A stretch of DNA of 63,740 bases, counting the filler, from Asterionella formosa (taxonomy: Eukaryota), in assembly GCA_002256025.1 (NCBI GenBank). It is 20 parts of 20 records of this genome, joined end to end, with 100 filler letters (N's around TTAATTAATTAA, not from the genome) between each part and the next. Parts side by side here need not be neighbours in the genome. Positions count along the whole stretch, not along the records: positions 1 to 1,234 come from NKIB01003507.1; 19 more parts are not named here. One strand, given 5' to 3'. Below, piece after piece: positions 1-63,740 of this stretch. The first letter of the stretch is position 1. Every line of letters starts with the position of its first letter. Made by a program: the position numbers and the translations under genes. The notes under the pieces were generated by a model, which saw nothing but the letters and a program-made list of their open reading frames with translations, had not been told where the DNA came from and ran no database searches.

Positions 1-130
1 TATTCAGATAATATATAGACATGTTCAACTACGTATTTTGATGTATTCAACTAATTCATGTGATGCATTCAAAATCAACTAGGCTTATTTACGTGATGGT
101 CACTTCACGTAATACGCGGCTTAGATGCAG
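1..130. repeat. Dispersed repeat; near-identical reverse complement of ~8807-8936
   Basis: TATTCAGATAATATATAGA...CACTTCACGTAATACGCGGCTTAGAT matches the reverse complement of 8811-8936 with only a few substitutions. Confidence 0.85.
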
Positions 131-584
131 TACATTTTTTTTAATCTATACATGAAGATTTTTACCCCCAAACCGTGTTTTTTTAACTCGATTGTTACCA
201 CAAAACTATTTTCTATTACTTTTGTTGATCCTATAATTAGCGGTACCAGCTAGCGGTGCCAGGTACCAGAGTCTTAAGTGCCGATCATACTAACAGTACT
301 GGTAGCAAATTTGTCAAGTATTTGTTCAGACCTCGCATATCAATCACTCCAAGTTCTCATCTGTCCAGTGGTCATCCTCTTCTTTCAATTCATTTTACGG
401 GTGATTTTTGCGATTTCATGAAAAATCCTTGTATGTAGTGTTTCAGGTAGTCACGCCAAGAGGTCGCAGCTGATGTTCTCCATTTAGGTAGAGGAGAATG
501 CCAAATGATGTTGTTATATATTTTACCGCAGCAAAAAAATCAATTCGGACACCAAATGAATCTACCGACAGAAATACTTTTAAA

Positions 585-831
585 AATTAATTTAGCTTTT
601 TTTATTTCACTTCTCGTCGACAGCAACCTTTGGGACCAAATACGGAAGTAACGCTAGCTAATTGACGAGTTCAAAGCACGATCATTATTGGTTAGTACAT
701 AAATCGCTACAACATTGCTTGAATAATTATGTTCGCATCTAGCATATTTAGCCCAAAACGTGAATTTACTCGATTTAACGTTGACTCTCAGTTCAAAATC
801 TTTCAAACGTTGACTCTCAGTTTTTAGGTGG
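585..831 (-). mobile_element. Terminal segment (TIR end) of a pogo/Tc1-mariner-type DNA transposon
   Basis: Homologous to 53430-53645. Ends in TGACTCTCAGTTTTTAGGTGG followed by TA. Carries a duplicated subterminal AACGTTGACTCTCAGTT. The 53-kb copy lies upstream of a decayed pogo-like transposase. Confidence 0.7.
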
Positions 832-968
832 TAGCTGCAGCGATTTTTGCGACTCAAGTGCCGAGCAACTTAATTTTAGGACGGATTATGTAGAAAAATA
901 CCATATCGCTACGTTGCTCCTACATGTTTATGTTCTGTACCTGGTACCCTTGAATTGTACTGGTACTG

Positions 969-1163
969 GCTGAAGGCAATACACGCCCGAGGTGGTCTCT
1001 TGCCTGCGAGTATACATGTGTTCGAGGCTGAGTGGCGCGAGTAGGTTGACCGTACGAGTGGCGCCCCCGGCGCTGCGAGAAGGTCACCCTACGAGTGCCA
1101 TCCCAGTCGAGTACACATGTATACGAGAAGGCAAGTAGCCGCCGAGAAGGGTATTGTTGAGGC
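969..1163 (+). other. Long imperfect hairpin with five tandem G.A mismatches (structured ncRNA or ssDNA element, unclassified)
   Basis: Arms pair about an axis at ~1067. CGAG at 988/1007/1023/1038/1055 faces CGAG at 1143/1124/1108/1092/1076. The intervening stems pair with Watson-Crick and G.T pairs on the + strand. Confidence 0.75.
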
Positions 1164-1234
1164 AATTCCCGCTCTAGCTATCGTCGCGTCATTCGCTTAC
1201 CTACTGCCCACAAATTTAGCATAAATGTCAATTT

Positions 1235-1334
1235 NNNNNNNNNNNNNNNNNNNNNNNNNNNNNNNNNNNNNNNNNNNNTTAATTAATTAANNNNNNNNNN
1301 NNNNNNNNNNNNNNNNNNNNNNNNNNNNNNNNNN
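1235..1334. other. Artificial contig linker (N44-TTAATTAATTAA-N44); 18 more identical linkers in the window
   Basis: Identical 100-bp pattern carrying stops in all six frames, repeated 19 times between ~1.23-kb contigs and two ~19.8-kb scaffolds. Confidence 0.97.
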
Positions 1335-1775
1335 GTGAATGATTTAGTCGTTAGCATGCCTTCTGAGGAGGTGGCAGGTTTGATTCCTGAACTCTCCACC
1401 TGTCTTTTTGATGAAGTACTAGTTCTAGGCAAGTGCTGGTGTCGGGGCTGACAACAGACAGGTCTAAGGTCTTCTGGGCCACAGTTCAACTTCACAACCT
1501 CCACAATTGCCAAGTTCTTAAACAAAAGCAACTTAAAAATAAATTTTAAATAATATTTTAGAGCAGGTGAGTTTACATTCACATGTAGCTATATTACTCA
1601 GTATTAAAAAGTATATTTTCGATGAGGCAAAAAATCCTCAATAATGTTGAAACCTAATTTTTTAGCCGCAATCCATTCTAAAATTAAGCGACCTTGTACT
1701 CTTACATAATTGTTGAGCTTCAAGAAGCAAGTAACGCAATTTTTCGGACAGCCGATGACGAGGAGTAACAGTGTA

Positions 1776-1862
1776 CAGGGAAGGTCCGGTAATCGAGATT
1801 TTATACCTTCATTACGTAATCGTTTTCAAAGTAATAACCGTGTTTTACCGGACCTTCCAATG
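1776..1862. mobile_element. 87-bp MITE (Tc1/mariner-type)
   Basis: Perfect 14-bp inverted repeat GGAAGGTCCGGTAA (1779-1792) / TTACCGGACCTTCC (1845-1858), CA...TG ends, TA on both sides. A similar end (TA-CGAGGAAGGTCCGGTA) occurs at 54620. Confidence 0.65.
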
Positions 1863-2386
1863 TATCCTAATTGTCCCGGTATGCAGGTAGGAAAACCTAC
1901 GTACGACGAAGCTTTCCATTATCAGTGCGTAGAACGTATCTGTTTTTATGTACCCCTGGCACCGTAATAGCATTACGAAGCGATCTACCGGTCTCTAGTC
2001 TCATGTTTACTCCCAGGTACCTGGTACCAGTACACTGGTACTGGTATTTGACTTGGATTCGGCTGACGTATCAATATTCTGCTATCATATGCATCAGGTA
2101 GACTGCCGGTAATCGTACCGGAGTACCGGTACCAGGGTAGGTTGGCTACAAGTGTATGTATAATACATACCGGCATGCTTCTTCGCTCTTCTATCCGATG
2201 CGTCCTTTTGCTTTGCTTGATTTCCGTCGTCATGATGATTCTATTCATTTGATGTAACCTAACCATATTAGTATTCACGTATCATTTTTACTCAGAATTT
2301 CATTGTATTCTGAGTGAATCTTAGCATTTCGATCATCATTGTCGGTTGGGTCCTGTATCCGAAAAGATACTAACCAATCTCTCACA

Positions 2387-2568
2387 ATGATTTCGACTCG
2401 CATCATTCGACACGCTGCGACTCAACGAGTCGTCGTCCGCTCCTTTTCCAATGCCGAGCAAATGGAAGCCATGAAGTCGCATCTGGCCAACATGCGCATG
2501 ACCTACTCGTTCGAGCCTATTCCATATGATTCCAGGCTTCCCATAATTCCCATCAACGACGACGCCAA
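2387..2568 (+). CDS. 5' fragment of a putative mitochondrion-targeted protein (cut by contig end)
   Basis: MISTRIIRHAATQRVVVRSFS is Arg-rich, acid-free and has an R-S-F-S presequence-like end. The GC-richer frame is open to the contig edge. Confidence 0.5.
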
Positions 2569-2679
2569 NNNNNNNNNNNNNNNNNNNNNNNNNNNNNNNN
2601 NNNNNNNNNNNNTTAATTAATTAANNNNNNNNNNNNNNNNNNNNNNNNNNNNNNNNNNNNNNNNNNNNGTTACCATCAC

Positions 2680-2880
2680 ACCAGTTCCACCATTTTACAT
2701 CATAGTCTTCTGGCCCTTCGACAACTTTCCAAATGGCATTTCACGGATTTCATGGAAAGGATCAGTCAAACAAGAAACGAGACTTACTTCCATTGTTTAC
2801 ACTACACGACTTTATGTTTTCGGAAAAGAAGATGAAGAAAGTTATGAAATCAATCGAAGATTCCTTTGAATACACTCAAA
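2680..2880. repeat. Dispersed repeat shared with ~5570-5760
   Basis: CATAGTCTTCTGGCCCTT...GGAAAGGATCAGTCAAACAAGAAACGAGACTTACTTCC...GAATACACTCAA is present in both contigs. Confidence 0.85.
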
Positions 2881-2917
2881 GATTTGCGCACAAATCTTTT
2901 ATGGCCTCACATCCCAA

Positions 2918-3530
2918 ATGATTAACGTTTACAGGATGCCTAGTGAGAGTCATGCACCTGGACCTTATAATGACTTTTTGCATGACCGGGGCGCCTCAAC
3001 TTTCCTCCACCACGATAATTATAGAGTTCAAACTGGCCTTAAATTTCGAGAGCTCAACCGCACTTACCTTGTGGCCAACGAATACACTGAACCCTATCAC
3101 CCGCAACAAAATCCTGCAGAAATGCGCGCGATTAAATGGATCAAAATGCACACACAAACGCTCTTAGACCGCACTGGCGTAAACCCTAATTTATGGTTAC
3201 ATGCTGCCAAGTACCTGGCAGATATCCATAATGTAAGTGCTGATGAGTCAATCTGATGGGAAATACCCCTAATGCTCCGTCATGGCAAAACACTTCTTGA
3301 CATCTCAACCTATATCCACTTCATGTTTTATGAACCCACCTTCTACCATGATCATATGGAAACATACCCCACCTCCAAGGAAAAAGCAGGATATTGGGTA
3401 GGGGTTGCCCTCCATGTGGGTGACACCCTCACATATAAAATCCTTACTGCTGACTCACCTCGCATCCCTAATTGCAGTAACCCTAACCCTAACCCTACCA
3501 ATCCCCTCCATCCCAACAAACGTGTCCCCT
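2918..3530 (+). mobile_element. Degenerate Ty1/copia integrase region (diatom CoDi-like)
   Basis: TEPYHPQQNPAE, LWLHAAKYLADIHN, DISTYIHFMFYEP, EKAGYWVGVALHVGDTLTYKILT and PLHPNKRV are copia integrase core/C-terminal motifs. In-frame stop at 3254-3256. Confidence 0.8.
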
Positions 3531-3659
3531 TCCCCCCCCCCCCCTTCCTCATACCCCACCCTTACCCTGACCCGGCACCCGGTGCGCATTGAATCCAAAA
3601 CTTTTCCTGCCCATCCCACCAGTCCCCTTTTGACTTCAGGGGAGACTCCTATCAACAAT

Positions 3660-3902
3660 TGCTTCATGAAAAGATACACACGTCGTAGTAAAGCACATGA
3701 CAAGAAAAGAAAGTTTATGCAATACATAACGAGAAAAACATTGTGGCTTCGACACATTGCGCATTCGAAGGATGGAGAATGTTTAAGGTAATGAAGCCAT
3801 CAATGTGGTACTTGGATGACAATCGTTGGGAGGCAGGCAGTACAACAACAAATTGTTAACTAAACGCAGCCACATTTCCTTTTTTCTCAGTTGATTCAAC
3901 AG
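3660..3902. repeat. Dispersed repeat shared with ~32780-33023
   Basis: CTTCATGAAAAGATAC...AAAGCACATGACAAGAAAAGAAA...CGCAGCCACATTTCCTTTTTTCTCAGTTGATT is present in both contigs. Confidence 0.88.
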
Positions 3903-4002
3903 NNNNNNNNNNNNNNNNNNNNNNNNNNNNNNNNNNNNNNNNNNNNTTAATTAATTAANNNNNNNNNNNNNNNNNNNNNNNNNNNNNNNNNNNNNNNNNN
4001 NN

Positions 4003-5236
4003 TCCTTATAATAACCGAGTAAATCACCAGTCCATTGATCAGTGAGACCATTTGAAACTGAACTTTCTTCCCTCTAACTGTTTTGTTAAGTGGTTTCCCA
4101 ACAATGTCGACAAAATCAGTAGAATGACGAATATCTATCATTCTCTGAAATTTCATGCTTAGTATCTGGATTAAAACCCAAATATTTTTGTTGCAATCGA
4201 AATTTTCCTTTGAGCACCAAGAAGCAAAAGGCTTCTGTACTGGCATTGATCAGCGAACCAACAAAACGTGTTTGCAATTCACACTGTGCCCGAAGACTTA
4301 GTTAAGATTTGGACACACCAGATTTGTCTCCTGTTAAAAATGGTTCTCCACGGCTTGTCCTGCCTATAAAATACACAGGAGCAAGAATATCACGCCAGAC
4401 TTGCTTGGTATCCTTGGCTTCCCCTGTCAATGTGCTTTGACTGCGCAAAAAGATAAAGCGTGAACGCCCACCTAATAAAGTCATCAATATCCATAGTCTG
4501 GAAGTAATAATCTGTTAGACCAGCTGGTGTGTCATGAATTATGTTAGCATTTTTAAATTCAAACATATTTGATAAGAATATAATCACCAACTCAAAACAT
4601 CATGCTTTCGGAGCATCTCCCTGCAAGAACTTACCTAAGATTCCTTTAAATTGATTATTCAATACATTCTGACATTCTCTCAACTTTTTTATGCACATGC
4701 CACCAAATGTCGATTTGATGTAATCTAAACGTGCCTTGTTGGTACGTTCAATGGTCTAGTTCATTGGAAGTAGTGCATCAGAACCATTCCATATGAAATC
4801 GGGAAGCTCTGGGTCAATCTCCACTTCTTTGCCTAACTCCGGTTTCACTGTGTATAGCCGAGTTAGGCAACATTGGGCACACCAATCCTCTTTGTGATTG
4901 GAAATGCCTTTCATACTACTTGGACCAGATAGGTCGGGATGTTTGATTCTCTTTTGGGACCAGAAAAAGGCACATTTGATTGATATTCTGTTTTACAGTA
5001 CCTGCAACTCACGAACTATAACCTCAAACTTACATGTTCACAGCAAAACTTCTTGGTCTTGAAAATAGAAGTCACAACTTTTGTGACAATTGATGGTTCA
5101 ATTTTAGCTAAGCGAGAAGGACGTTCTGATAAGGCTGCTGAAATTGAAGAGTCTTGATAACCTCGTATGGACGAGTTTTGAACCGAATTACGACCTTTGT
5201 AGTGCTTGAGTTCATTGACCAATTGATTATATCCTT
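4003..5236 (-). pseudogene. Decayed coding sequence of unknown identity (probably TE-derived)
   Basis: Protein-like minus-strand frames are broken by stops and frameshifts. No family motif recognised. Confidence 0.25.
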
Positions 5237-8090: not shown

Positions 8091-8429
8091 GGCGCTGGAT
8101 GATGATGATGCGGTAAAAAGAATGGTATCGGCGTTAGGGGTTATTTTGATAAACAATATACCGTATGCACACAGTCGTACTGAGTCGAAAACCCACAATA
8201 CCACGACTATCCGTCAGGTAGGAATTTCATTCATGCGCGCTGGGGGAAAATAAACCACAGGAATGACAAATACCAGTCAAAACCCACTCTACCGGTACCT
8301 GGTACCAGGTACCTGGTACTGTACGTAAACATGGTAACCGTATCGGCACTCCGGTACCAGGTGAGTACCAGGTACCACACCTTGTACCAGGATAAACGTT
8401 GTTTGCTATATTAGGTGCATATGATGGCA

Positions 8430-8585: not shown

Positions 8586-9005
8586 AGATATGCTAGCTCA
8601 CACAATATCCAGAAAAAAATTATAAAAAAATTTAAAAGCACTTATAACACGCTTCCTAAGACCATGGAAATACATGTGGAATTTCATAGCACGGCCTGCC
8701 AACCAGTCCTTGTGCTTCCCTAGTTTTATTAGCGTGGGTGAGTCCCCAACCATCTTTTGTGAAAGGTGATCATCTTAGCCGCAGCATTGGGGGAAACTCC
8801 GACTGCCTACATCTAAGCCGCGTATTACGTGAAGTGACCATCACATAAATAAGCCTAGTTGATTTTGAATGCATCACATGAATTAGTTGAATACATCAAA
8901 ATACGTAGTTGAATATATCTATATATTATCTGAATACATCACGTTAAATATTTGATCAAAGTATCATGCATGCATTCCTGATCATCACTATATTATGTGA
9001 TCACG

Positions 9006-9150
9006 TTCACATAATTATTTGAAATACTTCACATAATTATTTGAAATACTTCACATAATTATTTGAAATACTTCACATAATTATTTGAAATACTTCACAT
9101 AATTATTTGAAAATACTTCACATAATTATTTGAAATACTTCACGTAATTC
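9006..9150. repeat. 22-bp minisatellite (TTCACATAATTATTTGAAATAC) x6
   Basis: Six head-to-tail near-identical units plus a partial seventh. Adjoins the dispersed repeat shared with 1-130. Confidence 0.95.
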
Positions 9151-9510
9151 TGTAATTTCGTTCACATAATTCTAGAATAAAGTTCACTTAATATGTAACA
9201 TTTGTTTACGTAATTTTCTGGAGTTCATTCAACTAAANNNNNNNNNNNNNNNNNNNNNNNNNNNNNNNNNNNNNNNNNNNNTTAATTAATTAANNNNNNN
9301 NNNNNNNNNNNNNNNNNNNNNNNNNNNNNNNNNNNNNTATATAGCGTGACAACTTCAAGCGTGCTTTTCTCATCCAAAAAAAGAAGCTAGTAATGAAAAG
9401 TAGAATAATATTGTTTCAAGTCAACAGTGAATCATTTATTGCTTTTTACTTTTTGAATAATATTATTCGTAACGTGTATTTTCGCGACGAATCAAACAGA
9501 CGCGCAGTTC

Positions 9511-29145: not shown

Positions 29146-31399
29146 GGTAAAGAAGTCAGAATGAAAAAGTAGACAATGGGTNNNNNNNNNNNNNNNNNNN
29201 NNNNNNNNNNNNNNNNNNNNNNNNNTTAATTAATTAANNNNNNNNNNNNNNNNNNNNNNNNNNNNNNNNNNNNNNNNNNNNTATTCCAGATACATCAAAG
29301 AATAGCTACGCTCCTGTCTTCAAAGGTAAGGAACTAGTACGATGACAAAGAAAATCTAATGAGACATGAAAATTACGAAACCAGAATCACTCTGTTACTA
29401 TAAATAGACGGCACAGTCTCATGCTTCTTTGTGCATATCGCCTGCTATGCTGCGTTTCAATTCTAGATGTATTACGTTCTTGTTAGAGAGACAATGCTAC
29501 TAAAGAGAAGTAGATTGTGCAGTTCTATAATGGATGTGGTTTAGCTATGATTGAGTTTATAACACTGATTGATGCTCTGGTGAAAGACCGATCGGAAATA
29601 TTCGTCTTGTGTGATGAGCCATTTCGTTTTCATTGGATTTCTTTTCAAGCTCTTAACGGATTGCATAGTACAAACATACTGTGCAATGTAGATGATGATT
29701 CATCGAAGACATATGATGACTTGAACTACAAATGAAGATTTTATCGCAAACATTCGTTCCTCTCGACATGGCTGGTTTGTCGTTGTTGCAAGAATCAGAG
29801 CGAGGACTGGAGAGGATGATGAGCCAAACCACATTACTTTAACTGGTACATTATCCTACCAAGTAATTTAAATAGAAGAAATTAAAAGAAACATTACATA
29901 TAACAATTAAATTTCCATAGTCAAAAGGGTTACTATTTAAATTACAAAGGCATTCTTTATCAAAATTATTAGATGATATAACGAAAAATTATGATCAGAT
30001 GATCACAATCCTATGATGCATCATGGAAATATGATAGTTTTTATTTGCAGACGTTTCTTAAATGGTCACTGAAATATTTTGTACGTTGTCTTGGTTGGTT
30101 CTGTTTTATACCTCACACTTCATGAATTGAGGTATTGAACTTTAGGAATGTTTCTTTCACTATCAACATTGCCTGCTGATAGCAAAAGTAAATGATTTAT
30201 AATTTAATTGCAGTCAATTCAATAATGTTTATCCTTTTTGAGCATTACTAGTAGTAAATTCACTTGTTCAAATAAAATAATGGATCTCATAAGTCAGTGA
30301 ATCTCAACAAATGCTACTACCAAGAAGTTCAATGGTGATGAGAATGGCAGGTGAGTTTTGTTAAAAAGTGTTTGCCATGATCATACTGATGCCCTTTTCT
30401 ACCATACCAACACTGCTCACACCACATGGCCATTAGAGTGTACTTTTTTGATTTTGGTGAACTTGAAAGTGTAAAAGGCGAACAGCAAATCAAATAGTTG
30501 CAGCATGTGGAGGCNNNNNNNNNNNNNNNNNNNNNNNNNNNNNNNNNNNNNNNNNNNNTTAATTAATTAANNNNNNNNNNNNNNNNNNNNNNNNNNNNNN
30601 NNNNNNNNNNNNNNTTATGCAATATTCGCTCTCCAGCCATTCAGAATGACTACACTGTAGTGTATTAAATATAGAAAAAGCATAATCTAAGCTAAATAAT
30701 TACATTCTAGTGCCTATGTGGGCTACCTCAGGTACCCTGTAGCTACATGAATCCATCAAAAGGTGTATGATATATTGCATGTTTCATGGGCAATACATTG
30801 CCTACTTCACCTTATGTTTACCGGTATGTTGTATCATCATTAACTACAGTGTTATGTTGGTATGCGGCTGTGATGGCATTTGGGTTGAAATGATGACATC
30901 ACACATCAAGGGAAATTGATACTTTAATCAAAATGGTCAAACATTAAGCAAATCCTAGCTACTATGGTACCAACTGGCAGAATAAGTAAAAAGATCCTAG
31001 GTCTCAATATTGTAGGCTAAATCAGATTAAAGTTACAGACAATTCCAATCAACCAGGTGGTCAGGTGGTTTATTAAATGAAAAATCAAAAGAGATACAGA
31101 TGAATCAATTTGGAATTGGAATCACTATTGCCAGCACGATGACGTATGTAGCACTAAAGTTTGGATACTGCTCGTTTAGCAAAATTACCGCAACTTGCCG
31201 GTAAGCTGAGTACCAGGTGAAGTATCTAACTAGAAGTAGTAGTATTTGTTGAATATATGAGCTTATTTGTTAATCCTTGTGTGTAACTCGTTCTCCAAGT
31301 CGACACCAAAGTATACAATGAGGGTTAGTCGAGTTCTCTCATTATTGAGTTCTGATACATATATGATATAACACTAACCCTATATACATCTGTATTGAT

Positions 31400-33023: not shown

Positions 33024-34612
33024 CTCGTTTCGCTTGTTGGGGAGCACCAATGTAAAACCAAACCAAATTGCGTAAGTGCTCTTGTCGCTCGTTGGACCTA
33101 TTCACTTCTGTTGGAACAAAGCTGACAAAACGTTTACCTTCTCTCAAAGTTAGCTAAGATGACAAAAATGTACCGGTAAGNNNNNNNNNNNNNNNNNNNN
33201 NNNNNNNNNNNNNNNNNNNNNNNNTTAATTAATTAANNNNNNNNNNNNNNNNNNNNNNNNNNNNNNNNNNNNNNNNNNNNCCTGGTCTGTTCATTAAAAC
33301 GACTGCCCTAACGCAACAAAGAATAAGTAATAATAAGAAAGGATACGAAATGTGGCATTCCTACAATCCCAGCTCATAAATAAAGAAAGCAATACTGTAT
33401 ACGACAGATTGGTACGGAGTATATTACACGAACATATCGGTAGATCCTGCCTTGCAATTAAGGTTCTTGGCTACCTGGTACTGGTACCTGCAATAGGTAC
33501 GGTACCATCAGATGCATTCAATGCACGCATGTACAAAAGTATCAGGTACCTGGTACCTGGTACCACAGGTTGCGTATAGTAGATACCCAGGTACCTGGTA
33601 GTGGTACCTCGTACTTACAACGGACAGTACCTGGTGCTACCAGTATACAAGGATACTGGTAACAGCACCTGGTACCTCTGGTACCAGGGTACCACAAATT
33701 ACTGCTACCTGGTACCTGGTAACAGGTAGACTGACGTGTTTTGTTCCATTTTTACGAAATACAGGTAGGTCGTATGTAGTGCTACCGAGACTTTGTATAC
33801 CTGTTAGTACCTGGTACCAGGTTACCAGGTACCTGGACCGTACTCCAGTTGACTCATCCTCAAAAGCAATGGAGTACAAATGTGTCCCGTTCCCAAAAAT
33901 CCGGGTTCAAATCTGGATAAAATCTCCGGGTTCTGCGGTAGTCGAGTTGCGCTTTGCTGTGGGAGGGACTTCGGGTGGGTGATTTAGACTATGGTACTGG
34001 TATGTACTACATACATAAGTATAAATTGCGAAAAGCTTGGCAATGCTTTAGACTACTTCCCTGAATTGTATTCAAAGAATTGTGCTCTTCACCCCTGCAC
34101 TAATTTACTGATGATAATCATGCATAGCTGCCGATTCTTGGTTGTTCGATTCAACTCTAAAGCTACTAGAACTTAGCTAATATTCACATTGTTGCTACAT
34201 TAACATCTCTGCTTTGACTGCTTTGATTCATGTCGCACAGTTTGATACTATAGTCCAGTGTTTGCCTGGTATAACTCCATTGCATCCATCCTTGTCTGTA
34301 ATTTAAAAAGTTGGGAAAGCTATCATAATCATTTCGGTAAACAAAGAAGGTACATGACGTTTCCGCAGGCAACATAGGGGATAATAAACTTATCCCATGA
34401 TCCATAACAACAAAATGCTCCATGTATAGTAGGCATGTGGCACTTTAATGGTGAGTTGCATTTGCTTCAGTTTTACCAGACACTTTGACATTTACATAGG
34501 TAAGATATGAACNNNNNNNNNNNNNNNNNNNNNNNNNNNNNNNNNNNNNNNNNNNNTTAATTAATTAANNNNNNNNNNNNNNNNNNNNNNNNNNNNNNNN
34601 NNNNNNNNNNNN

Positions 34613-35167: not shown

Positions 35168-37129
35168 TAATTTATTCGGGTTAAACAAAAATTTATTTCA
35201 CTTATCGAATAATCATGTGATCACGCCAATAATTATGTGTGTTTGTGACAATATATGTTGACCAACTAGCCATCGCAACAGTTTAAAAGCGAAATTATGC
35301 TGCTCTGCCGCAATATTATGCTGCTTTCACCATATAATGAACGAAAGAGTCACCAATTCCGATTCACTTATTATTTTTTCCGCTCTGACATATTTCTTTG
35401 ATCTGAACTGGCAAAGAATAACACATGCAAGAGGAAGATTCACACAGTAGAATTCAGCACACGTAGTAGTAGTTGATGTTGTAGACACATTATTAAGTCA
35501 TTGTTGATTGTAGAGATTACAATAGCCTGCAGATTGGAAATAAAGCACCGTTGGTACTCGTTGAGCATCGTTGAGCATTGCATGTCTCCGTAGTGAATCG
35601 AAATTGAGATGTGCCACAATGGCCTTCTCCGTTTCGGAGCAGCTACAAATAGTCTACAGCGATAACTCTAGCAAGTACAATTTAGAAAAAGAAGGAAAGG
35701 ATGAGTAGCTGACAACCATTGAATTCGTAAATTCGTTAAGAAACAGCTGTTGCATATTTTAAATATTCAATGCATGTTGCCATGATAGTGAGTCAAAATT
35801 GAGATGTGCCGCAATGGCCGTCTCCTTTTCGGATCGGCTACAAANNNNNNNNNNNNNNNNNNNNNNNNNNNNNNNNNNNNNNNNNNNNTTAATTAATTAA
35901 NNNNNNNNNNNNNNNNNNNNNNNNNNNNNNNNNNNNNNNNNNNNCTATAGAGTTCTACACGAAGAGACTATAGTGAATGTAATGTAATCATGTATGCACT
36001 CATTAAACTATAAATGTTAGGTTGCCAGCATGAGCCACAATCTAAACGAATAGAAATGCTCCTTTTTTGGCTATGGTTGGAGTCTAGTAATTGACCAAAT
36101 ACCTGATATTTGGTGGATAAGAGTGTCATCCTTGACCAAGACCAAAGCATATTTTGTCTTGGTCAATGCAGTGGCTAAAATATTTTTGCTTTTTCGACCA
36201 ACACAATGCATCATGATGTTGACCTACAACTTCAGTTGGCTTCTTGGTGACATTTGGTGGTTGATGTGGTGGTGATGCTCTTAAGGTTTATCAGCATGTT
36301 ATGATATACAAAGTTTGGTAATCCGAATACCAAATTGTTATGAACTCCAGTGACCATGCCAATTTGGGTTCGGACAAAATAATGGAAAAGATTCTAACTA
36401 TATACCCTTGCTTGGTAAATGGGTCCAAATTTTGTGGTTTATACTGGAACGGAGTACCCGATACCAGTGTTGTTGCTTGCGTTTCGGATCCTTTGTAGCG
36501 TGGTACATACCACATACTCGATCGACGGTGTGTTTATGCATACTTTGACAGTACCTGGTGATCACCTGGTACCTGGTACTACCAGGCACTTTGCAGCATC
36601 ATTATTTATGTACGTAGAACGAAGTCTGAACGAATGATGACGAACACGACATCATCAGTATTCGCAAGGACGACGTCAGCAGCGGTGCCAATTTGCGCTG
36701 CTGTTGGTGTTGTTGCTGTTAATAGATACCGGTATGCTATACTACCGGCACCTGGTACCAGGTACCAGCTACCCTGAACTATACTCGGTAGACTACCAGG
36801 TACCTGGTACCTGGTATACCACGAGAGGATCGGAACCCAATCACCTTGCACCTTTAATAACAGACAATTCATTCACACGTAATCATACTGATGATGATGA
36901 TGATGGCTACCCGGTATTCATGATCATATGACACCTTCCACAGCTACCGGTACCGGTATTATTCTCGTTTTGCCCTTCCTTCCTATGCAATCATTGTGTT
37001 CAGCTATAGGCTTCTCACACTTTCGCATCCCAGGTACATAGCTATTACAGTAGATTATACATCTGCTTGCTTACATGTATTTACAAGAAGAATATTTCCA
37101 CAATCCAAAGGATCATACATTTTCGAGCG

Positions 37130-46862: not shown

Positions 46863-48635
46863 CAATCATTTAATACATATCATGTTTCTTTCAATGCCTC
46901 CATCAGCTGACCCATATCGTATCATGATAACTAGAGTCTTCCACTATATTTTATTGGCCACTCCGGAGTGCGCAAAACCAATTGAGATTGTTAATGTTCA
47001 TTACTGGCAATTTTGCAGGTTGCCCTGTTAACTTTATACTTCTTCATCCATTCAAATTACCTGCATCTAGGAAGATTGAGTTGTCATGTTGGATGTATAC
47101 TGTCTTAAAACCATTCACACCAACCAGCCACTTCTCCCAAATCGCCAGTATCATATAGCTTGATTATCATGTCTGCATATCTGCTTTGAAACCAACTGCC
47201 AGAGTCTGCTGAAGGAGAGGCAATATACCAATCTTGCTGTCGAAGGAGCACACTCGATTTTCGTCATACCATGGGCAAGCAATAGTGGATCAAAGGATTG
47301 TTCACCAATTCAATGTGATCCTTGTGTTTTTAATTGGATCAGAATTAATTTCAGGTGAAGGGTGAAGTTGTTCTGGATGAGCAATTCAACTGTAGATGGT
47401 TGACGCAATACAGAATCCTCTGTCAACTTCGGAACAGCAGTATTCATATGAGGTGGTATCACATCCCGCTTTGATTGTCTATTGCGATTGAATGGACAGT
47501 TGATTTTGGCAAATTAAGTGCTGATGCCAGCTGATGAATTGCAGTGCGCTTGTGGAAAGTAATTTCTTTTATATCTACAATCATCTCATCATGAGTATAT
47601 CTTTAATGAAGACCAGATCCGTTTTTGCAGGAAAGCGAGGCGAATTTGTCACTTCCATCTAAAGGGTATGAGGTTAGCTAGCATGCAGTTCCATATACTT
47701 CATACAGTAGTACTCTTATTAACATCTAACTTTTCCCCTGCATTTCAGCACCCTTTGTCACCATGTCTGTTGGGTTGATCATGGATTGATTCTCACTTCA
47801 GAATCTAGTCTGGCGACGCCAAGAAGCGCCACTTGAGCTGCACTATTCATAGTTGTGTAGTTTTCAGGCGCTTAAGAATTTTACTTTTAACTACCTATTT
47901 TTTATTTGTATTAAATAATGTGCTGAAAACAGACCTCACAATGTGTAACTGCAGGGCCTTAACCCTAACTATATTTTTAGTATACATAGATCTAGTATAG
48001 CTTTTTGGATGGCACACAATTAGGCAATTGAACCGGTGAATAAAGCTAGGAATCAAAATTGTCCCATAGAAATATTTTGAAATCCCTGCAACTATTTTCA
48101 ACCAGAGGAGTTACTAGGTACTCGCTCTGTCTTTAGTAACAGTTGCATCGATTCGCCGGCACCACCAGTGTCTTTACTGTTCACATATGAAGGAACGACG
48201 CTTTGCTATTGTTTGGTACTCCGTCTGTCTAGTAGTAACAGTTGCAACGATTATTCAATTGGTTTCGATTAATTTATTTACATGCTAAAAATTCAATTAC
48301 AGAAACCGAGTATATGTTCACGTCTATGGAACTTACAAAAATCGCATTTTTTCGAGTTAATTGACCCTCACGTAGAAATTTGGTATATTGGCTACACAAT
48401 CCTCATTTTTCATGGAGATGTTCGCCGTTTTCGTCATGGTAAGTAAACAAAAGCAGGATTCTCCAGCTGCTCACTACGACTACCTAGTACCTAGTACCGG
48501 TAAGCTCAAGTTTCTTATACGGTACATTCAAAAGAATCGCAATTTTCTAAGCTAAATTATTAAATCCCAGTGCCTATGTATGAGGGTACCTGGTACCTGG
48601 TACCACCATGGTAGCCATAATTATCATAGAATTGT

Positions 48636-51829: not shown

Positions 51830-53645
51830 CATCGCACCATTTGGTCTTTGTCGCAACTCCCCCACTCACCATCTCTTTGTGCACTTCTTCACACATAGAA
51901 GAAAATGAAAGATGGGTGCACCAGTCTGTTCGCTTTCTTTCGAAATTCACTCCTCCCTTTGAAGTGATAAGCTGTGAATTTCTCTTCAAGAATCCCCGCC
52001 AATAACCTTTGCCAAGTTCTTGCTTGGCGTTAAGTCTAAATGGCATGCTATGCTTTTACCTCCACTGGTCAAGGTTTTCCTTTGTTTTGTTGTCGGCAAT
52101 CAAAGAATTGGCAAGAAACAACCCCTCTGCAACAGAGACACCAGGTACTCTCATTCATGACAACTGAATGAGTCCAACAACAAGGAAGGTAAGGCTCGAT
52201 TTCAGACATTGGTGAACTTTGCCCCTGCACTTGCTCAACTCTTCTTTCTAAATGCACTGCTTCCTACTGTTTCACATTTAATTGATGAATAAATCTAAAT
52301 CCCATTCTTTTCTTTTGTTGATTTGATAATAAAGGTAAATGTTCCTTTTGGTATGTGTCTGTTGTGTTGTGTCATGTTGCTAGCAATTGTTTGTTGGATA
52401 ACTTTCATGTATGCTTCTGTTGCTTCTTTCAATGTATCTTGCACCCTGTATTTGGTCTCAACCACAGCAGAAATGGGCGATGGCGCCCTTTGGCCATCCA
52501 CCAACAGTTGGGCTAAAAGATTTTCCATCGCTCATCATCGTTTGTAATTGTCTCCCCAAACTCTCCACAGCAGGTAAGTTTATCAATCACTTCATCAGCA
52601 CAATTGAGGGTTGTTTGCAGTCCTCTCTGTCTCTATCGACTGACTCTTGTATCATTGCTCCTCATCTTCTTCATCCTCTTGAACTGCAAATGAACTGTGC
52701 ATGATTGTATTGCTGGTCATGGGCAATGAGGAGGGGGGGGGGGGAAGTGTGTTCCATATTTCCATATTCACTATCCTGTGTCAATGTTGAAAGTGTTGTT
52801 GTTTTAAATAGTATGAAAGGAGTCGCAGCAGCAGCACCTCCAGCAGCACAGGCAGTACTAGTCGTACCAGTAGAGTTAAATTCTAGTTGTGCAGCTTTCT
52901 TTAATTGATTTTTTACTTGATAAATAGTTAGCAACCAAGGTAAAATTATCTGTTTAGCAAGGATGACTTCAGAAATAGCGTCATATCATGGCATTCTTCC
53001 ACCATTGTTAGCTTTCTGAACTTCAAGCTCTCTCACTATGTTGTTTATAATGATCTGTATGGTGTTTTGCTGTTCCTTGAAAGGTATCCTGTTCTTCTTT
53101 GCAGCCTGCGAGGAGGCTTTGTCGCTCTTTGTAGCTTCCAATTTTATGATGGATTTGTGGGTGGTTGTGGTCGGTTGTTTTCTCATTATATTTCATGCAA
53201 TTGTCAATTGTTAGTTAGGCGGCGCGCCAGGAATTCGCAGTTGATGTCTTCCATTTCGAATGACATCGATTTATTATGGCGCACAGAAGCATGCGCGCAA
53301 CATGCCACTGTTGCATATTATGAACTCACAAACTGTTCTATTCAGACACTAAAATTATTTTCTACCCGAAAGATATTACTACAATAGTACCTGTATATGT
53401 ATTGAAAAAGTGATGCCAGCTGAATGAAGTAAAATTAATTTAGTTTTTCATTCCATTTCTCGTCGACAGCAATCTTTTTCACTAAATATGGAAGTAATGA
53501 CACGCTAGCTAATTGACGAGTTCAAAGCATGATCATTATTGATTAATACATTTATCGCTACAAAATTGCTTGACTGTACTAGCATCATATTTAGTCCAAA
53601 ACGTGAATTTACTTGATTTAACGTTGACTCTCAGTTTTTAGGTGG
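51830..53645 (-). mobile_element. Decayed pogo/CENP-B-like (Tc1/mariner superfamily) DNA transposon, 5' half with TIR
   Basis: Frameshifted ORF pieces 53186->51830, including LGKGYWRGFLKRN...KRTDWCT..F..M.EEV..EMV..GVA (CENP-B HTH-like). Upstream end TCAGTTTTTAGGTGG-TA at 53645. No DDE domain visible. Confidence 0.65.
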
Positions 53646-54892
53646 TACCAGTTAAAGCCTCCTTTGAACCTCTATTTCACCACATTTGATCGATTAGTAT
53701 GACTAAGCACTGCCATATTCATTTCAATCATTGCTTGCAGAGGATGCTCCATATGTTCAGCCATAAGGTGGTGGATTATTATTGGATAAATGATTCAACC
53801 AGCCAGATTCCATTGACAATGAAGACATTNNNNNNNNNNNNNNNNNNNNNNNNNNNNNNNNNNNNNNNNNNNNNNNNNNNNNNNNNNNNNNNNNNNNNNN
53901 NNNNNNNNNNNNNNNNNNNNNNNNNNNNNNNNNNNNNNNNNNNNNNNNNATCCATTGACAATGAAGATGTCAATGTTCATAATGATGCATTTATCCATTT
54001 TACTAGCTGTTCAAAGCAGTATTTAAAAATGTGTTGTTGTTAATCCCTTAAAATTAAGTTATATTCTAGAGGGAAGATGGATAAAAACATTTCATAATGA
54101 ATATTAGCCATCAAATACCACCAGGGGTTCTTGGTACCTGGCAATGCATACAACTGGTATGAGTAGGTACTACGGGTATGCGAGCTAAATAAATATATGA
54201 TAGTAAGGTTTACCTGATTCATGCATGTGTACATATGCCTGCATACTCAGAGGACATGGTAAACAGCTATTTTGTCCAAAACGGACGATGAATCCACACT
54301 TTCATGTATATTTGTCAATCTTACCACTGAATGTTCAGTGTACCAGGTAGCTCCTTCACACATAGAGAAGCGCTGTATGCATGCTCAGCTACAAATGGGT
54401 TCAAAGCAGTTTTTAGCTGTTACTCCTAGTCCCAGGGTACCTGTGTGCGCAGCAGGGTAGTAATCATCATTCATTCTACATACTATGTATTGTATGCCAC
54501 ATGTCATTATTTCTTTCACATAGCTACTACATTGTGATGTGAATGATGGTGGTTGGTTTGTGCATTCCGCCTCAATGGTATGTGTGCCAGAGTATCGGTA
54601 CTGGTACCAGTACCAGGTACGAGGAAGGTCCGGTAGTGCACGTTTTCTGTACACCTTTTCAGTTACAATTCACTCCCCATGATTCGTCCCATGCCAGCCA
54701 GACAAGCTATGCCAGGTTTCGATGAATATAATATTCCTAAAGAAATTTAGGATTTTGTTACTCTTATTGACTGGTGATGACAATTTGAAGAATCAAACTC
54801 TGAACACGACTCGGATTTGCTGCCAGATCAAATTGGTTCAGCAAGCAAACCGTCTTCTTGCTTCAGAATACAAATAGGAATCATTCTACATT

Positions 54893-55847: not shown

Positions 55848-57078
55848 GCTAGTTGTTAGTTCAAGGTGAGTGATATGCTGCACTGTAGTGCGTGAGATAA
55901 CGCGACAAGCAATGGTTAGAATCCAATACGACATTAGGTTACCGACTTGGTGAGACACACCAAGCCAGCGCCCGAACATGTTTTCGCCAACCCCTGCATT
56001 ATTCTTGTACCACACCCAATCGTAGGACCCGAAATCCAAGTATTCGGATATATCGGGTGTCTTGCCTGTGATTGCTCTATAGGAGTCCGACCTTCCAGCG
56101 CAAATGATGAGTTAGCAGTGAGAGACGTTGTTTCGCACACCCACACAATTCCGTAATCCCACAAACGCTTCGGAACCCGATGCTTCATCATTTGTGGAAT
56201 CCATCGCTTCTTCACTTCGCGAATGACTGACTCCGCTCGATTCTGTCGATGCTGTTTAGTTTCGCTCACGTGATGTTCAATCCCATACTTCCTCACGTTC
56301 TTAATGAATACCGTTTTCGGTCCAGTCTGTTCGGACGCCCCGTCAGACGTGAGGTACTCAGGTGCTCCGTAATCACGAATGAATTGTCGGAGCGCCAGAA
56401 CCGCGCCAGACTTCTTCTCCATCGGGTACGCTTTTACGAAATACGCTTCATTTGCAAAGATTTGAGCACATGTGTTGTTAGTCAGTGATTTGCATTTCCC
56501 GAAAATGGTGTCAGTGTAGAACCGTTGGTTCCGTAACTTCCGCTGGCCATACATCCTATCTGTTTGGTACCGCCTGCTCAATGGGAGTATTGCTGACCGA
56601 GTGCCCTTCTGAGTGGTGACCTCTAGGGTCTGTTTCGCTTGAGTCAGTCCGATATTACACCTTTCGCTGAGTGTCTCATAATTCACTTGAGCTTGCCGGT
56701 CCAACGAAACAAAAGTCCTGGTGGCTGGTACGTCCACTTGGGTTGATTTAATGTATCGAACATCTCTTAAACAAGCCTCCGCCATCTCCTTGAAGCAGTA
56801 GATGGACGATATCTGGGACAAGAAAGGCTCGACGCCGATCGTGTCCTCCGCCTCCACAGATTGTATGAGGGAAAGGTTGACAGTCTGTGGATTCCATTCG
56901 GTGTTGCAGGTTAAATGAATGTGAGTACAAGTATCAAGTTCACGCTGGGTGGGAGTGGTAGTCTCTGAGAAGATGTTTGTTCCGCTGATCTGCAGCGGAA
57001 TATCGATTTCCGTTGTCGAGATTGACAGCGGTGCCGCTTTATCGAATGGATTGCCATTGACAACCACCCCGGAAAATC
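55848..57078 (-). mobile_element. Ty1/copia LTR retrotransposon pol fragment (protease end plus integrase; diatom CoDi-like)
   Basis: HIHLT...WNP, TTQKGTRSAILPLSRRY, FYTDT (D), LTSDGASEQ (D), QNRAESVIREVKKRW (E), PKRLWDY. Continues after a frameshift with GRWLGVSHQVGNLMSYWILT. Confidence 0.9.
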
Positions 57079-61077: not shown

Positions 61078-62510
61078 NNNNNNNNNNNNNNNNNNNNNNN
61101 NNNNNNNNNNNNNNNNNNNNNTTAATTAATTAANNNNNNNNNNNNNNNNNNNNNNNNNNNNNNNNNNNNNNNNNNNNCCCTCTCTCGCCATTGCAAACAT
61201 TTAAACGTGTTGCGCTTGCACGCTTGAAACTTCCCTTTGGAATGTTCTTGAAATTAAACTGACTTCTTTGGGGCTTTCGCACTTGCTTTGTGTAACGAAT
61301 TTATAAGGATTGACATCACAGCATTGTCTTCAATCCTCATGCGGGACAAAAGTCTATACAATAGAGCAGCATAGTTACTGTAATTTGTAAAAGACTACAA
61401 AGCTTTATGTGAGTATGCGAGATAACTACCGGTATATCTGAGTACGGTATGCGAGAAAACGAAGCTTTACCGTACCGGTAGTACTGGTAGTCTACCTGGT
61501 ACCTGGTACTGGTACTCTTCTACCTTTCGGACGGGCGGCGGGTCAGCCAATCATAATATCTCCACTTGTACATTTTTCATCTGTGATAGCGCTGTAGGTT
61601 TAGAAGGTGACGTAACACGATACATTCATAGGGACAGGTACCTGGAGTACCAGTGACATGTTTCTGTCTCACCAACAACCCGCTATCATGCCGCATGCAT
61701 CTGTATCGTTTTATTAGGAGCGGTAGGAATACGGTAGCGTCTGCTACAGTACCAGGTACCCCGTACCTGTCACATTCAGGTTCAGCGCACTCTGGTATTT
61801 ACCAGTATATCTAGCCGGTACAAATAGATTGTAAAGACAGGACACAGCTACCTGGTACGGTACGGGTAAATTGTTGTTACATCGGTGTACATGTACATAC
61901 CGGTATACCTAATACAGCATAGGAGTAAGTATCTACATCAAGATCCCTCTCTATCAAGATGTTTGATGCAGTTTTTGGGTCCAGCCAACATAGCCTTCAT
62001 ATAAACCACCAATATTTTGTTTTCCACACGAAACTAAGCGACTATCCTGACTCTTTGAAGAACAAGGAGACAGCCACTGCTCTCAGAAAAGGCAGGCGAC
62101 TTCGCAGGCAGTCTCCACCCTCGGTCGCGTATTACCTTCAGAAGCTCGACGGGGGGCTGTATCACATTGTGACATCCAAAATTGGTCGGGTGCCGGTTTG
62201 GTCAGGACAACGTCTAGTGCATACAAACATATGTGATACACCAAAGTTCCGGCATGCTGATGATGACTGAGTGAATTTGGAGGATGCATGTAGAAAATTC
62301 AACGACAGATGGTAGAGACTCAAGTATACAAACTCGGCCACAAAGAAAACTGCGTTTCATCACACGTGCGTTCACAAACAACAAAAGCAATCAACGAGAA
62401 CAAATCAAACNNNNNNNNNNNNNNNNNNNNNNNNNNNNNNNNNNNNNNNNNNNNTTAATTAATTAANNNNNNNNNNNNNNNNNNNNNNNNNNNNNNNNNN
62501 NNNNNNNNNN

Positions 62511-63740
62511 TTGATCTAAGACATCAATCTCGTTAGCAAGCTTCTTGACATGGGAACGCACCATTTGACTCATTGGACTATAGTCGAGTCCACAGTCCTT
62601 GTGACTCATTATAGCCATTGATGCTATATTCTTGACATCCTCCTCGTTACCATGTTCAAGAAGTTCTAAAATTGTACCACTCAGCACAGGTCCAGATAAC
62701 CTTGTAAAAATCTGCTCTTTGACATTCTTCGTCAAAATGTCTGCTGGATTGTTTTCTGATCTTAGAAAAACAATATGCAACTCACCCTCATCTATCATGT
62801 TCTTGACATGATGAAACTTAATATCAATGTGTTTTTGTAGTGGACCTTGTTCCGTGATATTAAAATCCTCCTTGATCATATTTTTCATGTAGTCCACTGC
62901 ATTCCTGGTACCACAAATAATTCCATCATCCACATAGTTTGCCAACAGCCCTTCAATTTGTCCATCGTTGTTACGGTAGATAAACAACATTGGTGGTGAC
63001 GCACTTCGCGAATGTCTTGGACCAGCATCTTGGAGCTTGTACAATTCCATACATAGCCTTAATTAATTTGCAGATATGTATATTCTGATCGATCCCTGTC
63101 AATCCTTCTGGGGGCTCAATATAAATGTCTTCGTCGACGTCAGCATTTAGAAACGCTGCTTCAACGTCGATTGCTTCCGCTATCCAACCGTAGTACAAAG
63201 TAACAGCCAGAACAGTTTTTATTGTAGCATCACTTGCAACAGGAGCGAATGTTTCAGTAAAATCAACTCCCGGGATCTGTTCATATCCCTTTACAACCAA
63301 CCGTGCCTTGTATACTGTCTTTCCAGTTATCACGTCCTCCTTAATACGGAAGACCCATCTTGTCTTAAGAGCTCTCTTGTTCACGTCATTTCTCTTAACT
63401 ATTTTCCATACTCTTCTTGCTTGGAAGTTTTCAAATTCTTTCTTTATAGCTTTCATCCACTCTTTGCGATCAGGTCTTATCATTGCCTCATCATAACTAT
63501 TTGGTAAACCTGGGTCCGATGCAAGACTTGCATTGAATACGAAATTTACTTCAGTTTCCTTATTCGAAGAAGCTTCCTCCTCAATCACATTTGGTAGTGA
63601 AGTGTCTGGAGGGAATTTAACATTTTTAGTTGGATTGTACGATGAGTCCAACTTCTTCATTTCTCGTTCCAACTTTGCCTGTTGCTTCAAAACATTTCTC
63701 TTTTCTAGGTCAGAAATTTCATCACTCCTTGAGGTAGATT
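62511..63740 (-). mobile_element. Ty1/copia RT-RNase H fragment with internal deletion
   Basis: RWVFRIK, YKARLVVKGYEQIPGVDFTETFAPV, IDVEAAFLNA, KAMYGIVQAPRCW and YVDD, followed directly by the RNase H tail KHIDIKFHH...NPADILTKN. Confidence 0.92.

Follow-up and report, generated by a model that had tools for sequence, protein, structure and literature searches.

A 195-nt hairpin with five regularly spaced tandem G.A steps as the putative terminus of an abundant repeat of Asterionella formosa

What kind of genetic object would carry a ~195-nt hairpin in which the same tandem G.A mismatch recurs five times, on one strand only, is the question raised by positions 969-1163 of the sequence analysed here, a 63,740-nt stretch of DNA from the diatom Asterionella formosa (assembly GCA_002256025.1), hereafter the window. 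A first-pass annotation, made from the sequence alone, had considered three possibilities for it: an unknown non-coding RNA, a protein-binding scaffold, or the recognition hairpin of a mobile element that moves through a single-stranded DNA intermediate. The window consists of scaffolds, most of them of ~1,230 nt, joined by 19 artificial linkers, each a 12-nt spacer with stop codons in every frame set between two blocks of 44 N, and containing five longer N gaps of 120-582 nt; the hairpin is located on the first scaffold (1-1234). Nuclear genes of eukaryotic type, among them those for a kinase, ribosomal protein L4, Nop and PheRS, account for the ORFs in the window. For ribosomal protein L4, diatoms (Nitzschia, Cylindrotheca, Cyclotella and others) are the nearest named relatives at 79-80% identity, and metagenome proteins attain 89-99%.

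On the + strand, 969-1163 folds as one long rod of 74 pairs (42 G-C, 21 A-T and 11 G.U), as the annotation had claimed, with a calculated energy of -106.5 kcal/mol under RNA parameters, against -65.1 +/- 4.4 for shuffled sequences (z -9.4, with 0 of 200 shuffles equal). Folding of both strands, a check that had been suggested, gives -82.2 kcal/mol for the - strand (z -5.7), and -46.7 (+) versus -40.8 (-) with DNA parameters. When 200-nt N-free segments of the window were scanned at steps of 100 nt (n=548), the hairpin ranked first in stability (-107.9 versus a mean of -43.7, sd 10.9). The energy gap between its strands (-25.7, + minus -) ranked fifth among the same 548 segments, and the size of this gap is therefore not exceptional by itself. 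The strand specificity of the hairpin resides instead in the type of its mismatches.

All ten CGAG tetramers described by the annotation occupy the mirror positions that it gave them (Table 1), and CTCG, their counterpart on the - strand, is absent from the hairpin; the whole window contains 113 CGAG and 98 CTCG, with ~0.3 expected per 195 nt. In the + strand fold each CGAG lies opposite its mirror CGAG as C-G / G.A / A.G / G-C, and the stems that had been named between the steps are all present. Since the right-arm sequence is CGAGAAGG, additional purines accompany three of the steps, and CGAGNNGG is found at 5 of the 10 CGAG sites. Among the facing positions left unpaired by an automatic alignment of the arms, 14 are purine.purine (G.A/A.G 10, G.G 3, A.A 1) and 3 are pyrimidine.pyrimidine. 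The further claim that many deviations are G.T wobbles on the + strand holds weakly: such wobbles do occur, though in the same alignment they number 5 versus 4 for A.C/C.A. A GGCAA-containing word appears three times in direct orientation within the hairpin, which is itself flanked by a short direct repeat (969-980 and 1156-1166).

Rfam yielded no match to 969-1163 at E <= 1 (positions 1-5000 searched) and no gathering-level match across the whole window, so that the described Rfam family envisaged by the annotation as a possible identity was not found. Three simpler descriptions were also discarded. Arms built as tandem arrays were not supported, TRF returning 0 rows on 900-1234; a resemblance to Pol III boxes within the hairpin has the wrong box order and is lost in the consensus; and an assembly artefact is contradicted by the recurrence of the identical sequence in independent assemblies.

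Table 1. Coordinates of the hairpin, its internal steps and the adjoining features (positions along the window).
Feature	Position	Strand	Basis or remark
Flank base	968	+	G in window, T in 8 other copies (8/9 T)
Terminal hairpin module H, long form	969..1163	+	Five CGAG/CGAG tandem G.A steps; folds, motif positions, sharp left boundary
CGAG step 1	988..991, opposite 1143-1146	+	Right-arm copy = CGAGAAGG
CGAG step 2	1007..1010, opposite 1124-1127	+	Additional G1006.A1128 mismatch
Left edge of 101-nt segment absent from short forms	1007	+	Joint 1006>1108; L002, L003, L008
CGAG step 3	1023..1026, opposite 1108-1111	+	Fold, motif positions
CGAG step 4	1038..1041, opposite 1092-1095	+	Fold, motif positions
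CGAG step 5	1055..1058, opposite 1076-1079	+	Then 7-bp apical stem
CCC apex loop, 3 nt	1065-1067	+	Fold
Subterminal inverted repeat, inner side of hairpin	1162..1193	+	27/32 reverse complement to abutting member's last 32 nt in L001
Start of non-coding body	1194..1234	+	Runs off 1,234-nt scaffold

The hairpin belongs to a repeat family. At least half of the sampled words of 850-1234 were found in 15 public runs from 11 studies, with the possible source left out; the labels of these runs include freshwater, lake, estuary, marine, sediment and industrial waste, and RNA libraries are among them. Contigs of four runs, including those referred to as X2, X15 and X16, were aligned to scaffold 1-1234. 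Summed contig depth in X2 amounts to 750-1,200 just upstream of the hairpin, ~351,000 at 967-1008 and 107,000-349,000 onward to the scaffold end, figures that do not equate to copy number and are read only as hundreds of dispersed copies of the element with differing flanks. In the same run, the unique flank 805-972 is matched without difference by a contig of 2,181 nt with a depth of ~400, and contig pieces of the element number thousands in two runs. The left boundary at 969 is sharp, unlike flanks replacing the scaffold sequence there in 44 X2 contigs (agreement 0.40) and 28 X16 contigs (agreement 0.39), and loose-end consensuses ahead of 969 end in T. Exact-pattern scans of prokaryote genomes gave no match, nor did three exact patterns against 2.9 million viral contigs, and judged from these sequences the family looks eukaryotic only.

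One metagenome scan provided eight further loci (L001-L008), and together with the contig pieces these dispose of the single-copy locus that the annotation had named as an outcome contrary to its view. Because the scan pattern was 24 nt long with two free positions, the eight loci are biased to near-identical left arms. The window, L001 and L006 hold long-form copies; L002, L003 and L008 hold short-form copies without the inner 101 nt; L004 ends at the hairpin apex, and L005 and L007 are interrupted by contig ends. In the runs, the inner third of the hairpin is found at about one third of the outer depth and the joint 1006>1108 recurs in both X2 and X16; therefore, long (five-step) and short (two-step) forms coexist. 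The segment missing from the latter sits between direct repeats that start with CGAG at 1007 and 1108. Left flanks are unrelated in seven of the nine copies, the window included, whereas the same body follows the hairpin in all six copies whose downstream side is visible, in diverged form in L008; hairpin orientation is identical in the five of five copies that combine an unrelated left flank with a visible body. The flank of L008 carries a trypsin-like gene with 80% DNA identity to window 29608-30054, and this locus is therefore either part of a related genome or a paralogous region.

Comparison of the copies bears out the annotation's argument that five GA/GA steps would not arise by random decay of a palindrome, since no near-full copy lacks the steps and pairing is more complete in the family consensus than in the window copy. 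The base at 1031, A in the window, is G in 247,601 of 247,960 depth in X2 and also in all three other runs, which restores a pair; at 1107, T gives way to C in about half of the depth. The L001 hairpin, with G at 1031, folds at -109.9 versus -83.1 for its other strand, and short forms keep the asymmetry (L003, -39.6 versus -26.8; L002, -36.5 versus -26.7). Intact CGAG motifs amount to 10/10 in the window and L001, 9/10 in L006, 4/5 in L004, 4/4 in L002 and L003, and 3/4 in L008, all losses being CpG transitions. The five steps are present in the family consensus and appear to be part of the design of the element.

The copies are 90-100% alike, and a six-row alignment contains too few variable columns for a test of covariation. 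L008, the only clearly diverged copy, displays one double compensatory change (1000/1134, T-A to A-T), wobble-to-Watson-Crick changes at 1141 and 1157, a broken pair at 1002 and one lost CGAG, a mixture that decaying transposon copies would be expected to produce. Its strand asymmetry is lost (+ -32.5 versus - -35.6) and, since it folds as well on the - strand, selection for the + strand is visible only in young, near-consensus copies. Loose ends in the run contigs also reveal diverged subfamilies with different stem sequences. A history of nested insertions, each CGAG pair being a target duplication, was examined as well and rejected: CGAG-flanked edges occur only at the 101-nt difference between long and short forms, which would result equally well from loss of the sequence separating the two direct repeats (1007 and 1108), and the other joints in X2 fall off CGAG.

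Some minor features of individual loci deserve mention on their own account. L004, in its left hairpin arm, and L008, in a second half-copy, show the same 6-nt insertion at two different TA sites (TA to TA-CCGG-TA), which looks like the excision footprint of a TA-targeting cut-and-paste transposon. L008 further contains, at 2038-2326 of the oriented copy, a tandem duplication of ~141-148 nt with 94% identity that comprises the right half of the short hairpin and 90 nt of body. In L005, ~200 nt upstream of the hairpin (870-961 of the oriented copy), there is a (TGTCGAG)n microsatellite together with a word of ~17 nt that is present twice; this array is CGAG-rich, with an architecture unlike that of the hairpin.

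Beyond the hairpin, the body extends over 600 to at least 966 nt in L001, L006 and L007 without any Pfam-matching ORF, and holds two 44-nt direct repeats together with recurring GGCAA/TTGCC words, some of them as small palindromes. In L001 the order is the end of one family member, then the hairpin, then the body, the abutting member being of a short type seen also downstream of the L008 hairpin; in L007, at least 966 nt of reverse-complemented body run directly into the hairpin. From these two layouts, the unit is therefore deduced to be hairpin, inverted repeat, non-coding body and inverted repeat, and where members abut one another the hairpin lies between two inverted repeats. The first 14 nt of the element have no inverted partner in the window, their sole exact match there being the site itself; five other matches from the same search, with 2-3 mismatches, are within chance. 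Pfam searches of 38 of the 55 window ORFs of at least 110 aa returned no Rep, helicase or transposase, and the 47 ORFs of at least 70 aa from the eight short loci returned no transposase, Rep, helicase or RT family match, so the neighbouring transposase or HUH-type ORFs that the annotation had proposed to look for did not appear in either set.

Altogether, the hairpin is in all probability the terminus of a mobile element, as judged from a precise boundary, a high copy number and a non-coding body, and among the three options of the annotation it is the mobile-element one that these results sustain. Its mechanism may be of the Helitron2/Helentron type (HLE2), an assignment that we propose tentatively and regard as possible rather than probable. 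The amplified unit, starting at 969 and usually right after a host T, would then be a non-autonomous HLE2 of the type that bears a 5' stem-loop outside its left inverted repeat, with the hairpin followed by the ~32-nt subterminal inverted repeat and the non-coding body, and with the matching inverted repeat at the far end of the member. It would be mobilized in trans by a Rep-helicase, one strand being displaced as ssDNA whose terminal palindrome would fold and mark the end of the element for the enzyme. Of the traits to be expected from such an element, (i) the subterminal inverted repeat is present, with its 27/32 correspondence between 1162-1193 and the end of the abutting member, (ii) a stem-loop stands at the extreme end beside one inverted repeat, although its size is far beyond the described range, (iii) as to insertion between T and T with no target-site duplication, the 5' flank is T in 8/9 copies, the recovered ends being 5' ends, and (iv) a Rep-helicase partner was not among the ORFs searched in the 63.7 kb and the eight short loci. 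A canonical Helitron (HLE1) was discarded: elements of that kind have 5' TC, 3' CTRR with a 16-20-nt hairpin, and insertion between A and T, while the present one starts with GC (or TGC) and is preceded by T.

Within an HLE2-like mechanism, a role may be conceived for the G.A steps. The CGAG/CGAG steps put tandem G.A in place of Watson-Crick pairs every 15-19 nt. The + strand tolerates these well, but the opposite strand gets C.T/T.C at the same steps, which would favour the folding of one strand and would keep a long palindrome in duplex DNA from being perfectly symmetrical. The steps might thereby act as a strand selector, such that only the displaced strand folds stably and the duplex contains no perfect, unstable palindrome, a rather unlikely proposal. 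The apex recurs as a breakpoint, both at the end of L004 and in three joints at 1065/1066 in X2, and considering also the slipped 101-nt deletion the palindrome is nevertheless fragile.

Other explanations would account for part of these observations. The hairpin could be the palindromic appendage of a cut-and-paste DNA transposon or foldback-type MITE, in which the transposase would recognize the ~32-nt inverted repeats and the GGCAA/TTGCC words, and the ten same-oriented CGAG, often as CGAGNNGG, would be protein-binding sites in duplex DNA with no single-stranded role. The match between the inverted repeats, the non-coding and high-copy nature of the element, the three hairpin occurrences of the GGCAA-containing word and its recurrence in the body, the occurrence of CGAGNNGG at half of the CGAG sites and the long inverted arms of L007 are all compatible with this. 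By definition, a TIR-type MITE carries inverted repeats at both extreme termini and a target-site duplication. Against this reading, the edge of the amplified unit is the outermost base of the hairpin, with the inverted repeat lying further in, and this holds at one end only; the first 14 nt of the unit are without an inverted partner in the window, and an array of binding sites would leave the nested complementarity of all the spacers unexplained; a MITE of this kind consequently seems to us an outsider, with a modest chance of being correct. Somewhat fainter is the prospect of a function at the RNA level, with a transcribed + strand hairpin that tolerates G.U and G.A and serves as a small-RNA precursor or as a SINE-like 5' structure. 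Contigs from RNA libraries do span hairpin and body (480 contigs aligned in X16, and one of 383 nt in X15 that covers 981-1234 with 1 difference), the strand gap is 24 kcal/mol with RNA parameters versus 6 with DNA parameters, and the precise 5' boundary with variable flanks would fit. Nonetheless, contigs carry neither strand nor ends nor proof of transcription, and those of X15 also cross the 969 boundary into other sequence; cover in this run is restricted to 969-1234, and the uncovered 1-968 is not counted as evidence. The subterminal inverted repeats and the head-to-tail and palindromic junctions are moreover foreign to retroposons, no tail was seen, and Rfam contains no match. A stand-alone non-coding RNA, as the annotation had considered, is thus unsupported, the hairpin being the sharply bounded terminal module of an interspersed repeat, and an RNA-level role in general is judged unlikely.

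A rolling-hairpin or hairpin-telomere replicon, parvovirus-like or linear-plasmid-like and integrated many times, is a very improbable source of this terminus. Mismatched bubbles are typical of such ends, the apex is a recurrent breakpoint, and the passage of at least 966 nt of reverse-complemented body straight into the hairpin in L007 could be regarded as a replication junction. Against it, all five monomeric copies show one orientation, with no flip/flop, the 966 nt or more adjoining the hairpin contain no Pfam-matching ORF, the three exact patterns are absent from the 2.9 million viral contigs, and copies are dispersed by the hundreds with different flanks.

Returning to the HLE2-like assignment, the closest match to the element is found in HLE2 with a 5' stem-loop, namely the 'HLE2-reverse' FoHeli3-5 of Fusarium and a proto-Helentron of Phytophthora, FoHeli3-5 having a hairpin at the 5' end only (PMC5148889). 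As described in three accounts, HLE2 and their HINE/DINE-1 derivatives share with the present element a stem-loop at one end, outside an inverted repeat that is matched at the other end, as well as a T flank, non-coding content, high copy number and end-to-end junctions (PMC11417382, PMC5148889, PMC4067079). Non-autonomous Helentron derivatives are portrayed in one of these accounts as high-copy, T-flanked and often provided with internal tandem repeats (PMC4067079), and Helitrons have been annotated in one diatom genome (PMC7466962). Dimensions are on the contrary different: the HLE2 stem-loops described so far measure a few to a few tens of nt, as compared with 195 nt here, ~10 times longer and with five patterned G.A steps, and the inverted repeats given there as 12-16 nt compare with ~32 nt in this element (PMC11417382).

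The patterned G.A design is an unusual addition to a known class, that of transposon terminal hairpins. Tandem sheared G.A pairs in a pyrimidine-GA-purine context are a known biophysical motif, as an isolated motif; every step of the hairpin, C-G / G.A / A.G / G-C, has that same context, which the annotation had cited as stable in RNA and DNA, and here five of them follow one another, 15-19 nt apart, in a putative transposon terminus. Subterminal hairpins of IS200/IS605 elements are bacterial, about 20-40 nt long and located at both ends, in contrast with the eukaryotic host and the one giant hairpin of the present case. Elements moved by HUH enzymes, IS200/IS605 included, are described in one report as having strand-specific end hairpins, with non-canonical features in recognition (PMC10288648). 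The same report deals with Replitrons, a group of HUH transposons that encode Rep only and occur in algae and protists; they spread by copy-and-paste and have terminal motifs and perhaps a hairpin. It mentions none in diatoms and a palindrome of only 11 bp, and gives as their hallmark direct repeats that are short and stand at either terminus (PMC10288648). The short direct repeat that brackets the hairpin (969-980 and 1156-1166) recalls the latter. A literature search retrieved neither a transposon end with patterned G.A steps in its hairpin nor this diatom repeat, for which a prior Repbase or Dfam name is possible.

Transposons that move as single strands have terminal hairpins, normally short ones, as their recognition and termination signals. 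The present family offers a ~200-nt end structure with regularly spaced, chemically special imperfections, and hence a natural test case for whether non-canonical pairs can give a mobile element strand choice. Should the strand-selector reading be true, it would represent a design principle for transposon ends that is absent from the compared papers, and the hairpin would be by far the largest Helitron-type terminal stem-loop; if this is merely another MITE-like repeat, the finding would be ordinary except for its odd design. The element is very abundant in a diatom from runs labelled freshwater, estuarine and marine, and it could be of use as a marker repeat. It is disruptive to assembly as well, the window being made up of scaffolds of ~1.2 kb.

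Other repeats were noticed in the window. The end of a second family occurs at 1-127 (+) and 8807-8936 (-), the latter with 8956-9214, and reaches in X2 a depth of 258,000-301,000, about equal to that of the hairpin family. It has a sharp boundary at 127, a small stem-loop ~17 nt from the end and, in loose-end consensuses, a T after the boundary, while a 22-nt unit is repeated in tandem at least nine times in the interior of its second copy. Positions 128 and 969 are directly joined in one X2 contig. The family could be a further non-autonomous element of Helitron-like type, or even represent the opposite end of the hairpin element.

A dispersed word consisting of GGTACC/TGGTACC runs, with 12 sites in one repeat family, occurs at 941-968, 2010-2041, 8288-8319, 33532-33831, 36741-36817, 48474-48617 and 61492-61773 and in the L006 flank; it lies just upstream of the hairpin in both the window and L006, and its regions also rank high in fold stability within the window. 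At 583-833, the hairpin flank, although unique in appearance, contains another low-copy repeat, shared with 53431-53647, with 83% identity over 216 nt and an exact 28-nt match. Finally, copia-type fragments, including the copia-type RT detected among the window ORFs, lie on other, small and separate scaffolds (55937-57076 (-) and 62511-63738 (-)) and are unrelated to the hairpin element; the translation of the former is integrase-like, with no Pfam match at E <= 1e-5, and the latter contains an RVT_2 match at 62974-63738.
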